The notes beneath the pieces were generated by a model, which did no database searches, was not told the origin of the DNA, and was given only the letters and a program-made list of their open reading frames with translations. This document shows, in pieces, positions 30,833-40,470 of a stretch of 64,000 nucleotides of DNA (positions are counted from its first letter, which is position 1; each line of letters begins with the position of its first letter). The position numbers and the translations under genes were made by a program. The DNA comes from a virus. The DNA lies in the IMG/VR virus record IMGVR_UViG_3300045999_009829; one strand, given 5' to 3'.

Positions 30833-31636
30833 CTAGGAGAGTCCCATCTCCTGTCTGATCTTTGTGGCGGAGATGGAGTGGATGGCCTCGTCGAACACCT
30901 CCTGCTCGATCTTGTATCCAACATCACGGCCGTAGGTGATGTTCACGATGTTGGGAACTACCATCACGGTATACTTGCCGAAGTACTTAAGTCCGAGTGC
31001 GGCATGGATCCTTTGCTCAACGTTGACCGGGTCAAACGGGTTGGAGTCGTTCCATCCCTGGCAGTCACGAATCATGATGCAGACCTGCCCAGTCTTTGCA
31101 AGAGCTCTCTCGAAGAGCGCCTGGTGGCCCGGGTGCCATGGCTGCCACCTTCCTAACATCTGGACTGTAGGCTTCCTAGGATCAAAGCGCTCTGGCTTTC
31201 TGCCAGCTGCAATGTCGGCTGCAATGAGCTTTGCCCAGCCATCAGCGTCGACGCTTCGGATCCTGTAGTCGCACTGCGTGGGTGCCTCAAAGATCTTGTT
31301 GGTGTCCTCAAAGCGACCAGCAGTGATGGTGTCCAGCCAGATCACGTAGTCGGGCTCACCTCTCTCCGCAAACACGTCCCTGAGCTTCCTTGTCGGGCAC
31401 ACGAACTCACAGATGGAGACGTATCCCTCGCTCTTGTCCTTGGTGCCGTAGTCACCCATGCGGATGGCCTGGCGAGTCCTGCCCTCGTCCGAGAAGTCCC
31501 AGTCGTCGAACATGCTGCGGACCGAATCCGCGTTGTGCCACCGAACCTTGGATCCCAGGAGCTCTAGCTCTTCCACAAGCTTTCCAGCCAGAGTCGTCTT
31601 GCCCGACCCCGGTAGACCCATAATCAAAACCTTCAT
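30833..31636 (-). CDS. adenylylsulfate (APS) kinase-like domain fused to an HxGH nucleotidyltransferase domain
   Basis: GLPGSGKTT, NADSVR..FDDWDFSDEGRTRQ, FVCP and FEAP (CysC-like); C-terminal GRWQPWHPGH and ISATKIR. Confidence 0.8.
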   Translation of the reverse strand: MKVLIMGLPGSGKTTLAGKLVEELELLGSKVRWHNADSVRSMFDDWDFSDEGRTRQAIRMGDYGTKDKSEGYVSICEFVCPTRKLRDVFAERGEPDYVIWLDTITAGRFEDTNKIFEAPTQCDYRIRSVDADGWAKLIAADIAAGRKPERFDPRKPTVQMLGRWQPWHPGHQALFERALAKTGQVCIMIRDCQGWNDSNPFDPVNVEQRIHAALGLKYFGKYTVMVVPNIVNITYGRDVGYKIEQEVFDEAIHSISATKIRQEMGLS

Positions 31637-32349
31637 CACCAATCTCCTGTCCAATGCTTTAACTTAAACTCTCTGTAGAACTGTCTCTTCTCGAACTCGT
31701 GGTCTATCTGATCCAGCTCGGGGCGATACAGTATAGTGTCATAGGGCGGCACCTCATCATAAGTCTGGATGAAGCCGCACTCGCTTATCCGCTTTCGAAT
31801 CAACCCAAACGCTTGCTCGCCCGGATTTATGTCGACCATCTCACCGAGCAGGTTGATAGTCACCGCATGGAAGTATGTCTGCGGTCCCAGGAAATACGTG
31901 TTGTTGGATCCTTCAGCTCTCCTCTTTAGGTTGAGCCCCAGCGCTGTAGTGAAGATGGGATTGCCCGGTGCGCTGCACATGAAGTCGTGAGAGAAATCAC
32001 GCCCTGCGCAGATGGGAAGAACCATCATTGCTTTGTGATCAATCACGCTATCGAGCGAGACATTGCACAGTCTATCTATGTCGACGTATAGACCGCCCTC
32101 CTCATACAGCTTAATCAGCCTCCACACGTCTGACTTTACAACTGGATGGCAGTGCTTCAATCTAGAGTAGTCACTCGCGTCGAGCTTAACCCTGAGGTAG
32201 TCATCAAGGTCGCCATCGTCGCTTATCTCTACAGTCCAGTTGGGCGACAGCTGCACCAGTCTGCCTATGCAGTTCCTGACAAACCTCGACTCAGACTGCA
32301 GTAGGTCCTTCGTCTTCCATGATATATGTATCTTGCGAGGTATGATCAC
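31636..32349 (-). CDS. glycosyltransferase, GT32/OCH1-like (DxD)
   Basis: IPRKIHISWK, KSDVWRLIKLYEEGGLYVDID, FLGP. Confidence 0.85.
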   Translation of the reverse strand: MIIPRKIHISWKTKDLLQSESRFVRNCIGRLVQLSPNWTVEISDDGDLDDYLRVKLDASDYSRLKHCHPVVKSDVWRLIKLYEEGGLYVDIDRLCNVSLDSVIDHKAMMVLPICAGRDFSHDFMCSAPGNPIFTTALGLNLKRRAEGSNNTYFLGPQTYFHAVTINLLGEMVDINPGEQAFGLIRKRISECGFIQTYDEVPPYDTILYRPELDQIDHEFEKRQFYREFKLKHWTGDW

Positions 32350-32996
32350 GGGAACACCAGCTTGAACTCTAACCTCGACTTCTCGTTAGGCATGTCGAGT
32401 GGGTGTGGCATCTCTACATCTCTATAGAACACGTTCTGTGCGGACGAGAACGTAAGCTCCAGACAGCTCGGTATGAACTGCTCTGGCGTCTCGATGTACG
32501 AGTTGTTGTTTGCGTGCACGTGAACTAGCTTCTGGTCGACCTTGCCGATGAAGTTTGCTATCTGGTCAAACTTGTCGGGCTGATTTACGTCGTGGAACTC
32601 TATGACCATGCCAGTAAATCTTCGCGTGTTCGCTATAAGCGAGTCTAGCAGACCGTATTCGTCTCCCTCTATGTCGCACTTCAAGAACACGTTGCTGCCA
32701 TGCAAGATGTCATCTATAGATCCTTTGACGTTCTGCTTGTGTAGGCGCTTGCCGTCTATGAAGAAGGATTCGTCGACCTTTGCTTGCTCGTCGTAGGCAT
32801 CCATCTGGCACGGGTTCAACCGAAAGAAGTCTACCTCGTACGAGTTGTCGGGCCCGATGCCCAAGCTCAGCAGTCTGGTGGTTGCAATCACGTCGCTGTA
32901 GTTGACCAGATACCCGCCGTCGTAGTCCTTGCCCAGACGAACAAGCTCCCTGCAGTAGAAGGGCTTCAGGATCCTGGGTAGCTTCATGGTGTTCAT
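32346..32996 (-). CDS. FkbM-like SAM methyltransferase
   Basis: RLGKDYDGGY, LSLGIG, FLKCDIEGDEY, IEFH, HVHANN; likely start at 32996 or 32987. Confidence 0.8.
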   Translation of the reverse strand: MNTMKLPRILKPFYCRELVRLGKDYDGGYLVNYSDVIATTRLLSLGIGPDNSYEVDFFRLNPCQMDAYDEQAKVDESFFIDGKRLHKQNVKGSIDDILHGSNVFLKCDIEGDEYGLLDSLIANTRRFTGMVIEFHDVNQPDKFDQIANFIGKVDQKLVHVHANNNSYIETPEQFIPSCLELTFSSAQNVFYRDVEMPHPLDMPNEKSRLEFKLVFP

Positions 32997-33058
32997 GTCA
33001 ATGCGCTCTCTTGATAAACGCAGATTGGTAGCCGTTGAGCTGGTGAAACTCGTATAGG

Positions 33059-33973
33059 TCATACGGCACTTGCAATTTCTTTCAGTTGTTCCCTCGTGAA
33101 CTTCATGGCGCCGTCGTTGAGCCTGTCGGCAAACTCACAGTCGGGCCCGCCTATGCGGATGGGGTTGTAAGCTACCTGAACGGACTTATTCCTGTAGAAC
33201 TTGAAGTGCTTGGGATAACTTACGTTGACTTCGAACGTGGACCCCATTATAATGGTTCCTGACCGATTAAACGATCTAGCCATGTGTTGACCAACTGAGT
33301 CGACACCGACAAAGTAGTCACACTGAGATATCATAGCCATGTAGAACCTGAGGTCTGCATTCATGCCCTTACCATTGAGCATGAAGTTGTCCTTGGGGTG
33401 AATGTAGTCGTTGGGTCCGAAGTACAGGACTGCAGCCTTCTCCGATAGCATCCTGCCCAATTCAAGTGCATCGTCGACGTCGAGGCTCCTGCTTGTGGTG
33501 TCCGTAGGTCTGCCGTTGACTACTTGAATGCCGGACCCATAGGGCTGAAACACAACGAACTTGCTCTTGCCCTTGGCTCGCCTGGCTTCCTCGATGAGCT
33601 TTTGTGCGGTCGCGACCTCGTTCGAGTGTAGGTATAGTTTAGGCTGAGCTAGATCCGAGTGGTCATCGGTCTGGTTGATCTCTTCGTCGAACGCCTCCAC
33701 CAGGGACTTCCTCTGGTTGTAGTAGCTCCACCGGTGGTAGGGCTCTGGGGCTTTGAGCTCCCTGTCCTTGATCACCAGGTCAAAGATGCCCTTCTGACCT
33801 ATGCCGTATGTTCTGGGCTGCAGGAGCGGGTGGTTCCAGTACAGGTTCTCCCACCCATGCACGATGACCTTGAAGTCATCATTGGGATTGAGTCTTGCAT
33901 ACTTCTCTAGAGCGGGAATAGCCGTTATGACTCTCCCCGCCCCACCACTGATCATGAACGCGGTGCTTCTCAT
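33059..33973 (-). CDS. GT9-like (heptosyltransferase-like) GT-B glycosyltransferase
   Basis: ISGGAGRVITAIPAL, VVFQPYG, MISQCDYFVGVDSVGQHMA, IMGST. Confidence 0.75.
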   Translation of the reverse strand: MRSTAFMISGGAGRVITAIPALEKYARLNPNDDFKVIVHGWENLYWNHPLLQPRTYGIGQKGIFDLVIKDRELKAPEPYHRWSYYNQRKSLVEAFDEEINQTDDHSDLAQPKLYLHSNEVATAQKLIEEARRAKGKSKFVVFQPYGSGIQVVNGRPTDTTSRSLDVDDALELGRMLSEKAAVLYFGPNDYIHPKDNFMLNGKGMNADLRFYMAMISQCDYFVGVDSVGQHMARSFNRSGTIIMGSTFEVNVSYPKHFKFYRNKSVQVAYNPIRIGGPDCEFADRLNDGAMKFTREQLKEIASAV

Positions 33974-34428
33974 CCCCGCTTGAGGTCCTGCGTCATGGGG
34001 TTGTACTCCTTGAACCACTCCATGAACTCCTTGTCACCGAGATAGTTCCACACGCCGTCAAGCTGGTAGATGACTGGCATGCCGGTCTCAAGCCAGTTCT
34101 GCACGAGCCAGGACAGGTACTTGGACTCCATCTTCTGACCGCACTCGACGACTCGCAGCATGGGCTTGCTCTTGTTGGGACCCCAGCCCTCTATGTTGAC
34201 AAGCACCTTGGACTCTGATGGCTTCATCCACTCGGGCACTATGTTTTGGATATATCCACACCAGTAGTCCCTGCACGACTGAGGTCTGTGCTCGTGAATG
34301 GTGCAGTTCTTTCCTAGGTAGTGACAGGGTCTCCCGGGGAACTTGCGGCGACCGAACACCTCGTACTGAAGCCACTTGCAGCACTCGTTGCAGTCGCCGC
34401 AAGACCTCTCAACTTTCGGTTCCATCAC
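33970..34428 (-). CDS. YkgJ-like CxxCxxCC metal-binding protein
   Basis: CGDCNECC...PCHYL...CTIHEHRPQSCRDYWC. Confidence 0.8.
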   Translation of the reverse strand: MMEPKVERSCGDCNECCKWLQYEVFGRRKFPGRPCHYLGKNCTIHEHRPQSCRDYWCGYIQNIVPEWMKPSESKVLVNIEGWGPNKSKPMLRVVECGQKMESKYLSWLVQNWLETGMPVIYQLDGVWNYLGDKEFMEWFKEYNPMTQDLKRG

Positions 34429-35056
34429 TTCTCCATCTATTCAATACCGAATCCATCTGGTCCATGGTCGCCTGCAGGCTCACCCCCGTGCCCAGGTGCA
34501 CGAAGTAGTATCTCTGCCAGTCTTCCCACGTGATGCCGTTGTACTTGAGTCCGAACCTGGCTAGGTTCTCTGAGAAGGCAAACTCGTCGACGTGACTCTT
34601 CTTGTGGAGCAGGAACGACTTTGCCTCTGTGGCGGTGTAGTCAAGCGGTCGGAACAGGTCGTGGGTGTGGCGACAAGCGATGACTGCATTGGTGGCGATG
34701 CCTACGTTCCTGCCGTCCCTCTTGAAGTATATATTGCGCTCTGTGTCGAAGAACTCACTGGCGTGGAAGTTGTCGTTGAACCCCACGTGGTATGGATGAC
34801 AGAGAGTAGTGAAGTCGGGAAACTTGGCGTGGATCAAGATGTCGACGTCGAGCAGTAGGTTCCAGTCATAGCCAGCGCCGTCCCTGTAGACCTGGAGCTT
34901 CTCATACAGGATGTTCCAGTCGGGATACTTCCTCTGCGTGATCAAGTTCAGGTCGGCGCCTATTCGATCTGCATAGCGCTTGATCCGAGGATAGGTCACC
35001 GACCAGACTTCTGGCAGGTAGTTACCGATGTTGACTACGTGGATGCACTTGCTCAT
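34409..35056 (-). CDS. GT-A fold glycosyltransferase
   Basis: YADRIGADL, YEKLQVY, LLLDVDILIH (DxD), DEF, FVH. Confidence 0.65.
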   Translation of the reverse strand: MSKCIHVVNIGNYLPEVWSVTYPRIKRYADRIGADLNLITQRKYPDWNILYEKLQVYRDGAGYDWNLLLDVDILIHAKFPDFTTLCHPYHVGFNDNFHASEFFDTERNIYFKRDGRNVGIATNAVIACRHTHDLFRPLDYTATEAKSFLLHKKSHVDEFAFSENLARFGLKYNGITWEDWQRYYFVHLGTGVSLQATMDQMDSVLNRWRSDGTES

Positions 35057-35508
35057 AGATAGAGCGCCGAGAAGTCCTTGCCTGATGGATCCTTGGGTAG
35101 GTTGGTGCTCATGCCGTCGTCGAGCAGGGCTTGCAGAACTTGCTCTCTGGTGACATCACCCTTCCTTGCCATCTCGACCATCACGGCGACTGGCATGTGG
35201 TATATGTACGCGATGGCAAGTACTGTGGCGTGCAGGTTGTGCACTAGGAGACCCTTGTCCTCTTCCTTGCATACTCCGGCAAGCACCTGTCGAGCAGTCT
35301 TCCTGTACTTCATGGCTGGAAAGTGCGGCTGCATCTTGTGGAACCTATCTGGATCCTTGGGATCCTCCAGAACAAGAAGTGGCTCTGCCGCTTCCTCTTC
35401 CTGGCACCACTTCTCCAGATTGATAAGAGCTAGCATGATGCCCACGATATCGTCATCGTAGTCTGCATCTTGGAACCTGCAGTGGAGGTCCCTCAGTCTG
35501 TTACTCAT
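35053..35508 (-). CDS. hypothetical protein
   Basis: Overlaps both neighbours; phage-like codon use. Confidence 0.6.
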   Translation of the reverse strand: MSNRLRDLHCRFQDADYDDDIVGIMLALINLEKWCQEEEAAEPLLVLEDPKDPDRFHKMQPHFPAMKYRKTARQVLAGVCKEEDKGLLVHNLHATVLAIAYIYHMPVAVMVEMARKGDVTREQVLQALLDDGMSTNLPKDPSGKDFSALYL

Positions 35509-36041
35509 CTTTCCTCCTTTCTGTCAATGTTCATAGCGACCACTAGCCTCTCAGCGATGGTCTTCGGCACCTCGTGGTAGAGGATGCCAGGGAACACCAG
35601 CAGTGTGCCGGTCTTTGGCGTCACCGTCAGTGTGTCCTCGAATATGATCGGCGCAGCGCCCTCTGCTATCTCCAGATAAGCGACTGCAGCAAAGTCGCTG
35701 GGGTAGTGATAGTGTCGGTCGGTGTGGTCGCCAGGTCCGTAGTGAGCGCCCCAGCAGTTGTAGCACATGAAGTCCAAGTCGACCTTGAAGTAGTCTCTGG
35801 ATATGAACTTCACACAGGATAGAGTCAAGTCGACCAGCGGCATGAAGTTCTGATTGAATATGTGGCTTGACCAACCGCTCACATATTTAGCCTTCACGTT
35901 GCTCTCCATGGAGATCGGGTACCGCTCTTGCTCCTGCTGTATGGCTAGCTTTGCGGCCTCTATGGCGTCCAAGTGAGAGCTTATATCTACCGTGAAGACC
36001 GGGAGGCGCTTCTCTACGGTAAGTACTTCGACTGTTGACAA
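35505..36041 (-). CDS. putative 2OG-Fe(II) oxygenase (HxH...H type)
   Basis: WGAHY..GDHTDRHYHYPSDFAAVAYL, LLVFPGILYHEV, RLVVAMN. Confidence 0.75.
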   Translation of the reverse strand: MSTVEVLTVEKRLPVFTVDISSHLDAIEAAKLAIQQEQERYPISMESNVKAKYVSGWSSHIFNQNFMPLVDLTLSCVKFISRDYFKVDLDFMCYNCWGAHYGPGDHTDRHYHYPSDFAAVAYLEIAEGAAPIIFEDTLTVTPKTGTLLVFPGILYHEVPKTIAERLVVAMNIDRKEER

Positions 36042-36697
36042 TTGTCCAATCCTCTGACTGTGGTTTCACCCCTGAGGTCGTACGCGTACACGTCGAACTG
36101 ACTCATGGGAAACAGCTCGGCTCTCACATACATGTCCAGGCTCTCGTAGATCCCATGCTTTATTGTGTACGAGACTAGAGACCTGGCGACCGCTGGATCT
36201 ATGGCGTATGCATGGGCTCTGCACAAGCTCCTGAGCCTGCCTCTCTGGTCACTGGCGTGCGGCGGAGTCGCGTAGACCGGCTGACCGCGAGTCTGCTCTA
36301 TAGAGCCGAGATATACTATGGAGTTGAACAGTCTGTGCATCAGATACGGCTTGACCATGATGGCGTCGTGTTCGAGGATGACTATCGGCTTATCGACCGT
36401 GAGGCACCGGCACCACAAGCTGTAGTGACTCATGAAGCATGCCACCTGCGCCCACGAGAGCTTCTCAGTGATCAGCTTTGGCCAAAGCAGGTGTGGAATT
36501 CCCTTTAGGTGCTCTGGAATCTCTGGTCTGCCGTTAACGCCGTCAAAGCCCTGCCATAGAGTGAACTTTTGGCCGACTGACTGAAGTGACTCGACACACC
36601 GAGCGGTGAGCTCTTCTGAAGTCTTGTTGCCCTTCAGGGTGATGACGTATGCCGAGTCGACGTCGTTGTCGTGGAAGTTGGCGTCAAGGCTCTTCAT
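36014..36697 (-). CDS. GT25-family glycosyltransferase
   Basis: AYVITL, GFDG, ACFMSHYSLW.RC, IVILEHDA, AHAYAIDP..A. Confidence 0.85.
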   Translation of the reverse strand: MKSLDANFHDNDVDSAYVITLKGNKTSEELTARCVESLQSVGQKFTLWQGFDGVNGRPEIPEHLKGIPHLLWPKLITEKLSWAQVACFMSHYSLWCRCLTVDKPIVILEHDAIMVKPYLMHRLFNSIVYLGSIEQTRGQPVYATPPHASDQRGRLRSLCRAHAYAIDPAVARSLVSYTIKHGIYESLDMYVRAELFPMSQFDVYAYDLRGETTVRGLDNCQQSKYLP

Positions 36698-36703
36698 GGC
36701 GAG

Positions 36704-37546
36704 TTACCTGCTGGTCAATAGCTCCGGATAGAAGGTCTCATAGAACCACCTGCAGTTGTGCAGGACCGAAGCGGAATCCTGTTCCGACATGTACTTAGGC
36801 CATGACGGACCGTGAGACTCGAGCCGCGGCTTGGTAACGTGACTGACAAGCGCCCTATAGACCGTGTCGTGCTCGTAGTACTCAGACTGCTTGATGTTGT
36901 TCATGTCGTGCTCATAGTTGTCCATGCCTAGCCACTGGTACATGGACCTAAGTGACCTGACTGGCTCCTTGCTGAAGTCTTCCCAACGAGCAATGAAGAA
37001 GTTGTTGGGCCTCTTCTGCATCCACTCGAACACGTGCCTGAGAAACATGAGAGGTCTACCCATGTTTCCGCCAACGTCGGTGCAGTAAAGCTCTACTCGC
37101 TTTGACACGGGTAGCATGTGGAAGGGATCATCTCTGGATCCCATATGTATGTGCGTGTTCTTGAACAGTAGCTTTTCGAACGACGCTATGATGTCTCTGA
37201 GGTCCCTGAGGCATACTATGAACTTGGGATCATCGTAGATCGTGAACAGGGTATTGATGTGTGTATCCCAAGTCCTAGACTTGCTGATGACCACGGGCTT
37301 GTCAGTCAGCGTGGAGAACCAGCCGTCAATGCCGCCGCGGATGAAGCCCTTGACCGCTTCAGCGGCGGTGTCCTGCGGCATGGCTATGAACTCTGACACC
37401 GACGTCGACTGAGCTTTGACGGCTTCGGTCACATAGGGTAGTGGACATGTTCCGGTGGTGTAAATCTTTGGGTTCTGCTGAAGGATATTCATCAGAACCG
37501 TAGATCCAGAACGAGGTAGTCCGATGCAGAAGTTCACTGCTTTCAT
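36704..37546 (-). CDS. sulfotransferase family protein
   Basis: GLPRSGSTVLMNILQQNP (PAPS-binding loop), KSR.W, LRDLRDIIASF, RWEDF. Confidence 0.85.
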   Translation of the reverse strand: MKAVNFCIGLPRSGSTVLMNILQQNPKIYTTGTCPLPYVTEAVKAQSTSVSEFIAMPQDTAAEAVKGFIRGGIDGWFSTLTDKPVVISKSRTWDTHINTLFTIYDDPKFIVCLRDLRDIIASFEKLLFKNTHIHMGSRDDPFHMLPVSKRVELYCTDVGGNMGRPLMFLRHVFEWMQKRPNNFFIARWEDFSKEPVRSLRSMYQWLGMDNYEHDMNNIKQSEYYEHDTVYRALVSHVTKPRLESHGPSWPKYMSEQDSASVLHNCRWFYETFYPELLTSR

Positions 37547-37578
37547 GATATGGTGCACACCCTTTCAAGTTTTAATTA

Positions 37579-38715
37579 TTAAGCAAATTTGCGAGCCAAA
37601 AATGAGCGTCCATCAACTGCAAATTCGGTCCACTGAGTTCCAGGTACCTGAACCGGCGAAGATCTATTTATTCTAGATATGTCTACATTGCCAAAATAAT
37701 TATCTCCCCAAGCCCATAAAGTTCCATCCGTCTTAAGTGCACCGCTTGACCTATATCCCCCTGAAATTCCTGACCACTGGTTACCAGGCACCTGAGTAGG
37801 AGCGCATACACTAATGGTAGTGTTATGACCGAGACGGCCGTCATCATTAAGGCCCCAAGACCACAGTGTTCCATCTGATTTACGAGCTAGACTAAATCTT
37901 GCACCAGCCGAGATGTCGGTCCATTGTGTGCCTGATATCTGTACGGGCGAAGATCTGTCAGTGGTATAACTGTTACCTAACTGCCCAGCAATGTTAAAGC
38001 CCCATGTCCACAGGGTCCCATCTGATTTACGCGCCATTGCATGGCCATCGACCTTATCACCAGAATAGTCGACCCACTGAGTACCCGGTATTTGAATTGG
38101 TGATGATCTTGCTATGACATTTCCTTGACCCAACTGTCCCCGCGTGTTATCACCCCAAACCCACAAGGTATTATCGCTTTTAAAAGCTGCAAAACCACCG
38201 GCGCTTCCGCGAAAAATCCTAGACCACTGAGTACCCGGTACTTGTACGGGAGACGATCTGTTTTCAGTATTGTTGATGCCCAACCGACCTGATGAGCCAG
38301 AACCCCATGTCCACAGGGTTCCATCTGATTTACGAGCTGCATTACTATTAACTGTACTAGAGATCTCAGCCCACTGAGTACCCGGTATTTGAATTGGTGA
38401 TGATCTTTGAACTACTGTATTATCGCCGATCTGACCAAAGGCACCACACCCCCAAATCCACAGTGTATTATCGGATTTACGAGCTGCACGTGCACTTCCT
38501 TTACCTTGGATTGCAGTCCACTGAGTACCAGGTATCTGTGTCGGGGATGATCTGTCATTTGTAATGCCAACACCTAATGCACCGGCGTAATTACAGCCCC
38601 AGGACCACAATTCCGTTACGTTACTATTGGAGCTACTATAAATTACCTGCCCATCAACTACCAGCTGATAGAGCTTGTTCAGCGTGAATACGTTTGTCTC
38701 TACGGTACCTGACAT
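37579..38715 (-). CDS. RCC1-repeat (7-bladed beta-propeller) protein 1
   Basis: Seven ARKSDGTLWxWG.N..GQLG.....RSSPxQxPGTQW repeats. Confidence 0.92.
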   Translation of the reverse strand: MSGTVETNVFTLNKLYQLVVDGQVIYSSSNSNVTELWSWGCNYAGALGVGITNDRSSPTQIPGTQWTAIQGKGSARAARKSDNTLWIWGCGAFGQIGDNTVVQRSSPIQIPGTQWAEISSTVNSNAARKSDGTLWTWGSGSSGRLGINNTENRSSPVQVPGTQWSRIFRGSAGGFAAFKSDNTLWVWGDNTRGQLGQGNVIARSSPIQIPGTQWVDYSGDKVDGHAMARKSDGTLWTWGFNIAGQLGNSYTTDRSSPVQISGTQWTDISAGARFSLARKSDGTLWSWGLNDDGRLGHNTTISVCAPTQVPGNQWSGISGGYRSSGALKTDGTLWAWGDNYFGNVDISRINRSSPVQVPGTQWTEFAVDGRSFLARKFA

Positions 38716-39893
38716 GTCCCTGAGTCCATCCTACTTCTGATCTCTTCTGACACGTCACCCCAGGATCCGTCTACTCTCTGCCGCAGCTCTAGGACGTTCG
38801 AACCGTACCAGGGCTTTCCCTCCCACACGAAGTAAGGAACCAGCGGAGTCAGTACGGCCAATCCCTTGCCCATCCCAGCGGCTAGGTGCGCCACCGACGT
38901 GCAGCTAGATACGACTAGATCCATCTCTCTCATAATGCAGTATGTGTCCAACCAGCTATTTATCCGATTGCCGATCCACGTGGATCCTCTGACCGCATGG
39001 CTCTCTATCTGGAAGTCGTAGAGGTCACCGACGCTAGCTAGTGACTCGAAGTTCTCCACCGGAACCTGCCTAAACTGCTCGTGCTCGAACTCTGGGTTGC
39101 CCGCCCACTTCACGCCGATCTTGAATCCAGGCTTGAACTTCAGCGTGGGATCCTCGACGTTGACTTGTATATAGTCAGGCCTGTCCACTTCCTCAAATGG
39201 ATCATCGAGTCTGAGCAGAGACGGGATCGCCATGGACGGAACCACGCAGTCGAACTGGTTAGGATCAAAGTTCTTTTCAGCTGACGCTAGGTGACCCATG
39301 CCACGGATCAAGTCTACCATCGACTTGGGGCAGTATACCACCAGAGAGTCAGACTCGCGCTCGAGCAGCGGAAGCCATCTGGCAAAGATCAGGCAGTCGC
39401 CGTGACCTCCCTCCATGTAGACCGCAGTCCTGTCTCTCTTGGTCGGAGCTCTGATCTTCCTTGGATCCACCCTGGCGTCTCTGTGGATGCTTCCGAACAC
39501 GTTGATCTCTCGACCGGTGTTCATCAGATCAAAGCCCTCCAGGAACTTGCCCTGTCTGACCAGGTGCCAGCCCAGGTTGAACTTGACTGCGGGAATGTCC
39601 TGCGGGAGTGACTGGAGGATCTGAAACGACTCGTCGTGCTTTCCCTGCCAGTTCAGGTACAGTGACAGGTCTATCTGAGCCATAGGATCGTCGGATCCGT
39701 AGTCGAGGTTTCTGATGAGCCCTTCGGCAAGGTCAGGTCGACGCAGCTGATAGAAGCACTTAGCCATGTTGAGCTTGAGCGCCCGCCTGACGGTGCTGTC
39801 TCTCTCGTGTACGTGCACGGCCGCCATGAACTCAAGTGAAGCTAGGTATTCTCTCTTGTCAAACAGCTCCTTTGCCTGGTCAAACGCTACCAT
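38700..39893 (-). CDS. TPR-domain plus GT9-like glycosyltransferase
   Basis: N-terminal helical repeats; EGGHGDCLIFARW, IGVKWAGNP, MDLVVSSCTSVAHLAAGMGK, PWY, RQ...GSW. Confidence 0.8.
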   Translation of the reverse strand: MVAFDQAKELFDKREYLASLEFMAAVHVHERDSTVRRALKLNMAKCFYQLRRPDLAEGLIRNLDYGSDDPMAQIDLSLYLNWQGKHDESFQILQSLPQDIPAVKFNLGWHLVRQGKFLEGFDLMNTGREINVFGSIHRDARVDPRKIRAPTKRDRTAVYMEGGHGDCLIFARWLPLLERESDSLVVYCPKSMVDLIRGMGHLASAEKNFDPNQFDCVVPSMAIPSLLRLDDPFEEVDRPDYIQVNVEDPTLKFKPGFKIGVKWAGNPEFEHEQFRQVPVENFESLASVGDLYDFQIESHAVRGSTWIGNRINSWLDTYCIMREMDLVVSSCTSVAHLAAGMGKGLAVLTPLVPYFVWEGKPWYGSNVLELRQRVDGSWGDVSEEIRSRMDSGTCQVP

Positions 39894-40470
39894 AGTTCAG
39901 ACCATCCTGCTGAGGGGACGTCTTTGTCCATGCCACTAGAGAGTACTTCGTGCCTCTGGTGACAGGCGTTGACCTGTGGATGTGCTGCAGACCACTGGGC
40001 CACACCAGCATGGATCCGACTGGTGACTTCTTGTTGGTAAAGCCGTACCTCGGAAACTCTAGCTCTCCGCCGTCGTGCTCGTCATTCAGCTTCACGGTGC
40101 CTGTCACCATAGAGTCATCCCAGTGCACCGGCAACTCCCTCTGCGTAGTCGGCGTGTACTTGATGATGAACGGCACCTTCCAGCCGCTGAACCACATGCT
40201 AGACGGCATCTTGTAGAAGTCCTCTAGTACCGGCTGAACGGTCTGCTTCCAGTGCATGCAGAATGACCTGTAGAGCTCCGGACTGATCTTGTCGATCCTG
40301 AGCTCCTGACCCGGGACTGGATCGTTGGGTCTGCTCTCGTACTGGTTGATGGAGTCAGCGGCTTCGGTCAGGATCCTGCAGAACTCTGGCTTCCAGAACT
40401 CTATCTGCAGGATGTCGGTCGCTACTTGCTCTACTTTAGGATTGAACACGACGTAGTCGGTGTAGCTCAT
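39880..40470 (-). CDS. 2OG-Fe(II) oxygenase resembling the lysyl-hydroxylase (PLOD) catalytic domain
   Basis: FIIKYTPTTQRELPVHWDDS.VTGTVKLND...GGELEFPR...WPSGLQHIH.STPVTRGTKYSLV. Confidence 0.8.
   Translation of the reverse strand: MSYTDYVVFNPKVEQVATDILQIEFWKPEFCRILTEAADSINQYESRPNDPVPGQELRIDKISPELYRSFCMHWKQTVQPVLEDFYKMPSSMWFSGWKVPFIIKYTPTTQRELPVHWDDSMVTGTVKLNDEHDGGELEFPRYGFTNKKSPVGSMLVWPSGLQHIHRSTPVTRGTKYSLVAWTKTSPQQDGLNYGSV

Follow-up and report, generated by a model that had tools for sequence, protein, structure and literature searches.

A candidate compact PAPS synthase, joining a divergent APS-kinase-type domain to a miniature HxGH nucleotidyltransferase, in phages and marine bacteria

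The IMG/VR virus record IMGVR_UViG_3300045999_009829 was analysed over a stretch of 64,000 nucleotides (the window), which is part of a T4-like myovirus with PHROG matches to a major head protein, portal, sheath, large terminase, baseplate wedge and baseplate hub. From about position 40470 down to 30471, all genes lie on the minus strand with ends that overlap or abut, and the last enzyme gene of this run, the open reading frame (ORF) at 30833-31654 (-), is the subject of this study. Its product joins an adenosine 5'-phosphosulfate (APS)-kinase-like domain to a miniature HxGH nucleotidyltransferase and is a candidate 3'-phosphoadenosine 5'-phosphosulfate (PAPS) synthase. The protein is read as 267 aa from the ATG at 31636, the Met at which homologues also begin (coding sequence 30836..31636 (-), stop codon 30833-30835); it begins MKVLIMGLPGSGKT, and its ATG shares one base with the stop codon of the gene upstream. 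The kinase domain occupies residues 1-148 (31193..31636 (-)) and contains a GLPGSGKT P-loop, NADSVR replacing DGDNxR, DWDFSxxGRxRQ and the lid FEDTNKxFExP. The nucleotidyltransferase domain, hereafter the transferase, occupies residues 150-267 (30836..31189 (-)) and contains GRWQPWHPGH, IRDCQGWNxSNPF, VPN, YGRDVGY and ISATKIR. A preliminary description of this DNA had reported a 267-aa protein combining an APS-kinase-like P-loop domain with a small domain bearing GRWQPWHPGH and ISATKIR, and both motifs are present exactly in the ORF. The AlphaFold2 (AF2) model of the whole fusion has a predicted local distance difference test (pLDDT) score of 90.8 and a predicted template modelling (pTM) score of 0.86.

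A PAPS-type sulfotransferase is encoded upstream at 36704..37546 (-), with 280 aa from the ATG at 37546 and an alternative GTG start at 37558. It belongs to phrog_27463 and matches Sulfotransfer_3 (3.2e-14, 54.1 bits) and Sulfotransfer_1 (7.3e-11, 42.4 bits), both above their cut-offs. The PAPS-binding motifs are kept, with GLPRSGST as the 5'-phosphosulfate-binding motif (5'-PSB) and R..SF as the 3'-phosphate-binding motif (3'-PB), and R16, G18, T20, R118 and S126 are invariant in 16 homologues. The preliminary description placed this gene about 5 kb upstream of the fusion in the same gene run, and indeed the distance is 5.07 kb and all intervening genes are on the same strand with overlapping or abutting ends. 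Moving from the sulfotransferase towards the fusion, these genes encode a family 25 glycosyltransferase (36014..36697 (-); Pfam Glyco_transf_25, 7.8e-12), which is syntenic in the related phages L004 and L006 (loci and genomes are given as L and G numbers), and a 2-oxoglutarate (2OG)-Fe(II) oxygenase-like protein (35505..36041 (-); Pfam 2OG-FeII_Oxy_5, 6.8e-9; phrog_81, 2.9e-20). Four genes without a named family follow across 33059..35508 (-), namely 35053-35508, 34409-35056, 33970-34428 (Cys-rich, phrog_9155) and 33059-34018 (phrog_8954); these have no Pfam match and belong to PHROG families of unknown function. The next product is an FkbM-type methyltransferase-like protein (32346..33062 (-)) with a weak Pfam Methyltransf_21 match (3.1e-4, 21.3 bits against a cut-off of 22.7) and the same label on the syntenic gene of L004, and directly upstream of the fusion is a DXD-motif glycosyltransferase (31636..32349 (-); Pfam Gly_transf_sug, 5.4e-10), whose stop overlaps the fusion start codon. 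A megablast search with a 12-kb region found no match among GenBank phages.

The N-terminal domain of the fusion matches Pfam APS_kinase (PF01583) over residues 8-96 (E 1.2e-10, 42.1 bits against a cut-off of 21.1), and its best matches among PDB sequences are APS kinases (2yvu, 4e-7; 2gks, 1e-5). The top Foldseek matches of the whole model are also all APS kinases, with TMt values of 0.6-0.8, such as 4rfv (TMt 0.82, root-mean-square deviation 2.0). A Walker A motif is present as GLPGSGKT at residues 7-14, where G7, G10, G12 and K13 are invariant in 41 homologues. In addition, R40, F48-S49, R53 and Q56 (in the place of Asn) align with APS-binding positions, while FEDTNKxFExP aligns with the lid FTGIDxPYExP; the APS-binding roles of the Arg after DGD, the Phe-Ser pair, the Arg of DRxEN and the lid are those of fungal and plant structures. 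Judged by its sequence, the domain is a member of the APS-kinase family and not a CysC equivalog. Homology, together with the gene adjacency and genomic profile described below, makes it very probable that it is an APS kinase serving sulfotransferases.

Two types of sulfurylase are known for sulfate activation, Sat and CysDN. In the small domain of the fusion, Pfam CTP_transf_like matches residues 168-217 (E 1.2e-3), and comparison of a family profile with PDB sequences retrieved NadM 2qjt (1.6e-6) and the Methanocaldococcus jannaschii nicotinamide mononucleotide adenylyltransferase (NMNAT) 1f9a (1.9e-4), with the alignment limited to profile positions 10-78, the ATP-binding first 68 positions. 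NCBIfam NMNAT-type models score 17-24 bits against cut-offs of 127-341. The NMNAT signatures GRFQPFHxGH, NPF and ISxTxIR have counterparts in GRWQPWHPGH, SNPF and ISATKIR. Foldseek on the whole model saw the kinase alone, so the C-terminal 118 residues were folded separately, which gave weak Foldseek matches (E ~4e-3). Fold comparison with VIA-align placed phosphopantetheine adenylyltransferase (PPAT) at Z 11 over 109 residues and archaeal NMNAT at Z 10, and the fold also resembles HldC and Fom1 cytidylyltransferase. The preliminary description had proposed comparing a predicted structure with Sat; PPAT and NMNAT came out best, and no ATP sulfurylase was among the 50 matches shown, although a distant likeness may exist.

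The domain, at 118 aa, has neither the PUA-like N-terminal domain nor the catalytic domain of about 200 aa that characterise Sat. The HxxH motif is present as an invariant H168-P-G-H171, yet this motif is superfamily-wide and not diagnostic of Sat, and the catalytic residues of HxGH and ISxTxxR are all invariant across phages and bacteria. HNGH, the counterpart in human PAPSS1 (hPAPSS1), is essential there (PMC11697783). YGRDVGY was considered as the GRD loop of Sat (GRDHAG) and dropped, as its Asp is Gly in SAR11 (GRG). Because the profile matches NadM and NMNAT and no ATP sulfurylase, the small domain is, on this comparison, a derivative of NMNAT/NadM and not a shrunken Sat, and it is best described as a truncated NMNAT-type enzyme whose second-substrate half has been lost or replaced. 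Given this NMNAT/NadM origin, ATP sulfurylase activity would have newly evolved within the HxGH superfamily.

The fusion is not an isolated case. More than 7,850 proteins match it in length and architecture, the best 120 at 56-92% identity, and the fusion family has at least 600 members in IMG/VR and 497 in species-representative genomes. Full-length fusions occur in 12 GenBank phage records (Xylella, Xanthomonas, Stenotrophomonas and Clavibacter phages), where they are annotated as 'kinase', and many family members are named 'adenylylsulfate kinase' in source databases. The small domain also exists as a free-standing protein of 118-136 aa that adjoins a 135-148-aa kinase of the same clade, and split pairs in phages are found in both orders, with the kinase first in L167 and the transferase first in L168. 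The module is chromosomal in SAR86, SAR11, SAR116 and other bacteria. In all sampled SAR86 loci the pair consists of two genes with an 8-nt overlap, while 12 of 14 SAR11 loci feature a split adjacent pair and the remaining two have the transferase without an adjacent kinase. Fusion, along with adjacency in both gene orders, points to consecutive steps.

To count neighbours, all ORFs of 80 fusion-carrying IMG/VR loci were clustered, and a model of the sulfotransferase family was built from single-domain seeds, which avoided the second domain of 589-aa sulfotransferase fusions. The family of the window's sulfotransferase is the most frequent real neighbour of the fusion (29/80 loci). In these 29 loci it is always upstream, on the same strand and within 5 kb, with a gap of just 2-3 nt in about ten, and two further loci have it 11-13 kb from the fusion. 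This family is found in 10 of 50,697 GenBank phage records, and the pairing is therefore more than chance. Co-occurrence with sulfotransferases across phages had been set beforehand as a test of the proposed function, and it is borne out by these counts. When the phage sulfotransferase loci themselves were surveyed, a kinase of this clade lay within 10 kb in 15 of 79, and five of these 15 had a kinase-only gene. In L145, L149 and L161, the kinase-only gene is directly after the sulfotransferase with overlapping or abutting ends, which ties the kinase half to the sulfotransferase even without the transferase. The stand-alone kinases of the clade are 146-155 aa and carry DLGFSxEDRxEQARRMG. Synechococcus phages with this sulfotransferase have no fusion, and control genomes show that the host genus encodes its own Sat and APS kinase.

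A number of phage loci feature additional genes around the module. In five loci (L035:9031-9993, L042:9488-10381, L044:2-1018, L065:2299-3249 and L068:1512-2495), a second gene just upstream of the fusion encodes an N-terminal domain of about 180 aa of no known family followed by an APS-kinase-like domain; its P-loop is degenerate in some copies (GLPGSSRSS in L035), and it may be a regulatory or substrate-binding paralogue. In two large phages with DNA polB (L003:13227-16088 and L167:6653-11145), the fusion or split pair is situated in a 7-deazaguanine-type gene set with GTP cyclohydrolase I, PTPS (QueD-like), a radical-SAM protein and a phosphoribosyltransferase, with no sulfotransferase nearby. 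Xylella phage Sano, which has a fusion but no sulfotransferase, has an annotated cysteine dioxygenase about 3 kb upstream of the fusion (L001:3211-3888, gp28) and a MazG-like pyrophosphatase; the dioxygenase may represent another sulfur link.

SAR11 and SAR86 are known as lineages unable to assimilate sulfate. Bacterial copies of the module provided the most telling test. A CysQ equivalog (282 bits, cut-off 228.8), the 3'-phosphoadenosine 5'-phosphate (PAP) phosphatase, begins 19-20 nt after the fusion in L196 and L188, and in L243 a CysQ-like gene and a sulfotransferase come after the pair. Sulfotransferase genes are directly upstream of the pair in L241 and L238 and directly downstream in L180 and L172. 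The complete SAR86 chromosomes G023 and G024 encode 2-4 sulfotransferases, a CysQ-like gene and this kinase as the sole APS_kinase match, and neither has a match to Sat, PAPS_reduct (CysD/CysH) or AprA.

This pattern was profiled in an even sample of 101 genomes of the SAR86 order. A sulfotransferase is present in 47 of the 49 genomes with the transferase (absent in two) and in nine of the 52 genomes without it (absent in 43), an association with a Fisher p of 5.7e-17 that is uncorrected for shared ancestry beyond one stratification by NadD. The latter, an unrelated polymorphic gene, was chosen since presence could simply follow clades, and the association holds in both NadD-positive and NadD-negative strata (p 1.5e-11 and 1.8e-6, respectively). 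In at least 20 SAR86 genomes, the order is sulfotransferase, kinase and transferase on one strand. Sat is found in one of the 101 genomes, and convincing PAPS_reduct matches occur in two, both of which lack the transferase. NadD itself is in 23 of the 49 genomes with the transferase and 29 of the 52 without (p 0.43), and the 101-genome profile thus rejected the idea, which arose from G023 and G024 having no NadD match, of the transferase as a substitute for NadD in SAR86. Where a SAR86 genome has no NadD match, it encodes a protein of 372-377 aa whose C-terminal domain is CTP_transf_like (GRFNPIHSGH ... ISSTILR; L257:831-1946 in G023 and G024:C1:1052260-1052742). The N-terminal 200 aa of this protein belong to no family and lack a PDB relative, and the protein may be the NMNAT of these lineages.

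In a corresponding set of 101 genomes of the SAR11 order, the transferase is found in 82, Sulfotransfer_1 proteins in 87 and both in 76 (p 6e-4), while Sat is found in four; these tallies include the unpublished genome G224 as one count, on which no conclusion rests. For cultured SAR11 strains, cysC and cysQ are listed and cysD/H/I/J are not (PMC5069961). The synteny of the SAR11 pair (L259-L267 and L272) consists of a Rieske oxygenase (GbcA-like) or DddP-like M24 protein, the kinase, the transferase, an enoyl-CoA hydratase and a small CoA-binding protein.

Taken together, PAPS consumers, a CysQ recycler of PAP and an APS-kinase-type enzyme occur in these lineages without a known APS maker, and the kinase always has as its partner an adenylyltransferase with intact catalytic residues. 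For this reason we propose, as the simplest explanation, that the small domain adenylylates sulfate. The 118-aa HxGH domain would transfer AMP from ATP to sulfate, yielding APS and pyrophosphate (PPi). The formation of APS from ATP and sulfate is thermodynamically unfavourable. The N-terminal APS-kinase-type domain, fused or encoded next door, would at once phosphorylate the 3'-OH of APS to give PAPS, a step supported by homology, and this coupling would pull APS formation forward as in animal PAPS synthases. In the window phage, gene context suggests that PAPS would feed the sulfotransferase at the head of the same gene run, with a sulfated glycan or glycoconjugate on the virion or infected cell as the likely end product. 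In SAR86 and SAR11 the same module, usually as two overlapping genes, would supply PAPS. It is moderately probable that the transferase is an ATP sulfurylase, a function that we infer from domain coupling and the pathway hole, and the description of the 267-aa protein as a putative compact two-step sulfate-activating enzyme carries a similarly moderate probability. The preliminary description had suggested such a compact route from sulfate through APS to PAPS, and comparative genomics (kinase homology, domain coupling, the company of sulfotransferases and CysQ, and the gap in SAR86) lends this sulfate-activating role a reasonable degree of support; all tests that could be made on sequence data agreed with what this suggestion predicts. 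The broader proposal, that the 118-aa domain represents a third class of ATP sulfurylase, one of independent origin that arose from NMNAT-like adenylyltransferases and always works beside a divergent APS kinase, is put forward with a little less assurance, at slightly better than even.

A series of observations weighs against this two-step reading. The kinase domain scores 37.5 bits with the NCBIfam CysC equivalog model, far from its cut-off of 138.7, and the DGDN motif of APS kinases is absent, with N35-A-D37-S at the aligned positions (N35 and D37 are invariant in the family); in human PAPSS1, alanine at either Asp of DGD abolishes kinase activity (PMC8528679). The fusion has no match to Sat PF01747 at E 0.01 or better, the small-domain profile retrieved no ATP sulfurylase from PDB sequences even at E 10, and this domain is closest to NMNAT/NadM in sequence and to PPAT in fold. 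A sulfotransferase does not always accompany the fusion in phages: Sano and DLP_6 (both complete genomes) and one IMG/VR phage of 383 kb (rated 100% complete) encode the fusion and have no recognisable sulfotransferase in searches with PF13469, PF00685 and PF09037, of which the PF09037 (Stf0) search was uninformative, with no match anywhere, control genomes included. Conversely, 64 of the 79 phage sulfotransferase loci have no kinase of this clade within 10 kb. In most SAR11, AprA (found in G031) could supply APS from sulfite (PMC5069961), which leaves the pathway hole clean in SAR86 only, and the core SAR11 context consists of CoA and organosulfur catabolism genes, not sulfotransferases. The limited correction of the profile statistics for shared ancestry belongs with these points.

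Four other explanations were weighed. The serious rival is that the kinase alone acts in sulfate activation, converting host-made APS to PAPS, and that the transferase has a different coupled role, such as regulation or scaffolding, the handling of PAP or APS, or the adenylylation of another small anion, with APS in SAR86 coming from an unrecognised enzyme. The kinase-only genes directly after sulfotransferases show that the kinase can serve a sulfotransferase in the absence of the transferase, and the lack of a sequence link between the transferase and Sat, along with the two SAR11 loci where the transferase has no adjacent kinase, fits such a division of labour. Nevertheless, we consider it unlikely, as the invariant HxGH and ISxTxxR residues argue for a predicted working adenylyltransferase, consecutive steps are suggested by how strictly the two genes pair in either order, and the complete SAR86 genomes show no other APS source. 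Salvage of nicotinamide adenine dinucleotide (NAD) is a known theme in phages, and a NadR-like protein in which the kinase acts on nicotinamide riboside and the small domain is an NMN adenylyltransferase could restore NAD+ during infection. The best sequence matches of the small domain are indeed NadM, NadR and archaeal NMNAT, with which it shares GRxQPxHxGH...NPF, but this match covers just the ATP-binding first 68 positions of a domain about 50 residues shorter than NMNATs, and the scores are far under the NMNAT equivalog cut-offs. Furthermore, the kinase matches APS kinases instead of the NadR kinase domain, the neighbours are sulfotransferases and CysQ, and in SAR86 the transferase is unrelated to NadD and tracks sulfotransferases, all of which makes this salvage role quite improbable.

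A function in glycan synthesis, where the kinase and then the nucleotidyltransferase activate a sugar, polyol or other phosphate as in HldE or TagD-type pathways, is similarly improbable. The kept APS-kinase substrate-binding motifs and the adjacency to CysQ are not explained by it, related phages already have a separate HldE-like gene, and the module is also found in replication and nucleotide contexts without glycan genes and, in SAR86, beside housekeeping genes; in its favour, genes for glycosyltransferases, epimerases and the heptose pathway abound in the window run and at many related loci, and the small domain has a fold like those of HldC and Fom1 cytidylyltransferase. The least probable of the four, with very little chance of being correct, is an analogue of CoA synthase in which a PPAT-like adenylyltransferase is coupled to a kinase acting on the 3'-OH of dephospho-CoA. 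By structure, PPAT scores highest (Z 11 over 109 residues) and the SAR11 pair adjoins enoyl-CoA hydratase and CoA-binding protein genes, but the fusion has no sequence match to CoaD or CoaE models and a search of SAR86-order genomes failed to find the pair in roughly half of them. The presence of canonical CoaD and CoaE in all SAR86 and SAR11 genomes that were tested led us to reject this explanation.

The proposed two-step activation of sulfate has parallels in characterised systems. Animal PAPS synthases (human PAPSS1/2; 1x6v and 1xjq) feature the same order of an N-terminal APS-kinase-type domain and a C-terminal HxGH adenylyltransferase, with kinase domains that superpose on that of the fusion, and they share the proposed chemistry from sulfate through APS to PAPS and its use by sulfotransferases. 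However, PAPSS proteins are about 620 aa and include a Sat-family sulfurylase of about 400 aa with a PUA-like part, whereas the second domain of the window fusion has 118 aa, no PF01747 match and an NMNAT-like origin, and the kinase motif is NAD in the fusion and DGD in PAPSS. Sat-CysC fusions (Aquifex 2gks) and rhizobial NodP/NodQ with NodH place sulfate-activating genes beside a sulfotransferase and have a homologous kinase, but these systems use Sat or the GTPase-coupled CysD/CysN, neither of which was found in module-carrying SAR86 genomes. The closest sequence kin of the small domain, archaeal NMNAT and NadM/NadR (1f9a, 2qjt and 1lw7), have GRxQPxHxGH, NPF and ISxTxIR in common with it, and NadR also joins an NMNAT to a P-loop kinase; in the window fusion the domain order is reversed and the kinase is of the APS-kinase family. 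Compared with NMNAT/NadM, the window domain is about 50 residues shorter, aligns over the ATP-binding half only, and has a genomic profile that follows sulfotransferases and not NAD genes. The bifunctional CoA synthase (PPAT plus dephospho-CoA kinase, DPCK), whose CoaD part is the best fold match at Z 11, follows the same logic of an adenylyltransferase and then a kinase acting on an adenosine 3'-OH, although CoaD and CoaE have no sequence match to the window fusion and their canonical copies coexist with the module.

The genes reported as phage 'cysC' auxiliary metabolic genes (AMGs) and as SAR11 'cysC' are probably the same genes as this family. Such annotations treat them as a lone sulfur-assimilation step and ignore the attached or adjacent transferase, whereas the evidence here points to PAPS for sulfation. 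Our search of the literature on phage or SAR86 sulfotransferases together with APS kinase found no paper describing this module. PAPS synthesis itself is known; novelty would lie in the type of enzyme proposed to carry out the first step, in how very widely it occurs and in the new interpretation given to 'cysC' in phages and SAR11.

Beyond the sulfotransferase, the gene run of the window continues with an RCC1-repeat protein (37579-38715 (-)), whose repeats are visible in the translation and whose syntenic genes in L006 are labelled RCC1, and a 397-aa protein (38700-39893 (-)). Many related phages have the sulfotransferase as part of a 589-617-aa fusion (L006:3686-5455, L025, L069, L070, L039, L041, L030, L014 and L056), the C-terminal half of which resembles the 38700-39893 protein (E 2.4e-111 to a mixed model). 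Because of this homology, the 397-aa protein probably partners the sulfotransferase. Two 2OG-Fe(II) oxygenase-like genes, 39880-40470 and the 35505-36041 gene described above, flank the sulfotransferase/glycosyltransferase run, and the region with the oxygenases, sulfotransferase, glycosyltransferases and RCC1-repeat gene looks like one protein- or glycan-decoration module. Close relatives of the window phage encode an HldE-like fusion of PfkB and cytidylyltransferase plus an epimerase (L004:12221-13384 and L006:12194-13360), and L007:12183-16066 instead encodes a GHMP kinase, a SIS isomerase, a nucleotidyltransferase and a GT1 protein. Phage-encoded heptose-nucleotide pathways adjoin sulfation genes in L004, L006 and L007.

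If the proposed function is correct, a third and miniature type of sulfurylase, present in very abundant marine bacteria and thousands of phages, would alter the textbook account of sulfate activation. SAR11 and SAR86 would activate sulfate to sulfate surface molecules, which would explain why they have kept cysC, cysQ and many sulfotransferases without a known source of APS. By carrying the two-step enzyme, phages would enable their sulfotransferases to function in hosts that produce no PAPS, and many viral 'cysC' AMGs would be genes for sulfation and not for assimilation, with a consequent change in sulfur-cycle counts. At 267 aa, the fusion would be the smallest PAPS synthase known and would be attractive for PAPS regeneration in biocatalysis, while sulfated glycans would emerge as a common currency of the surface interactions between phages and their hosts.

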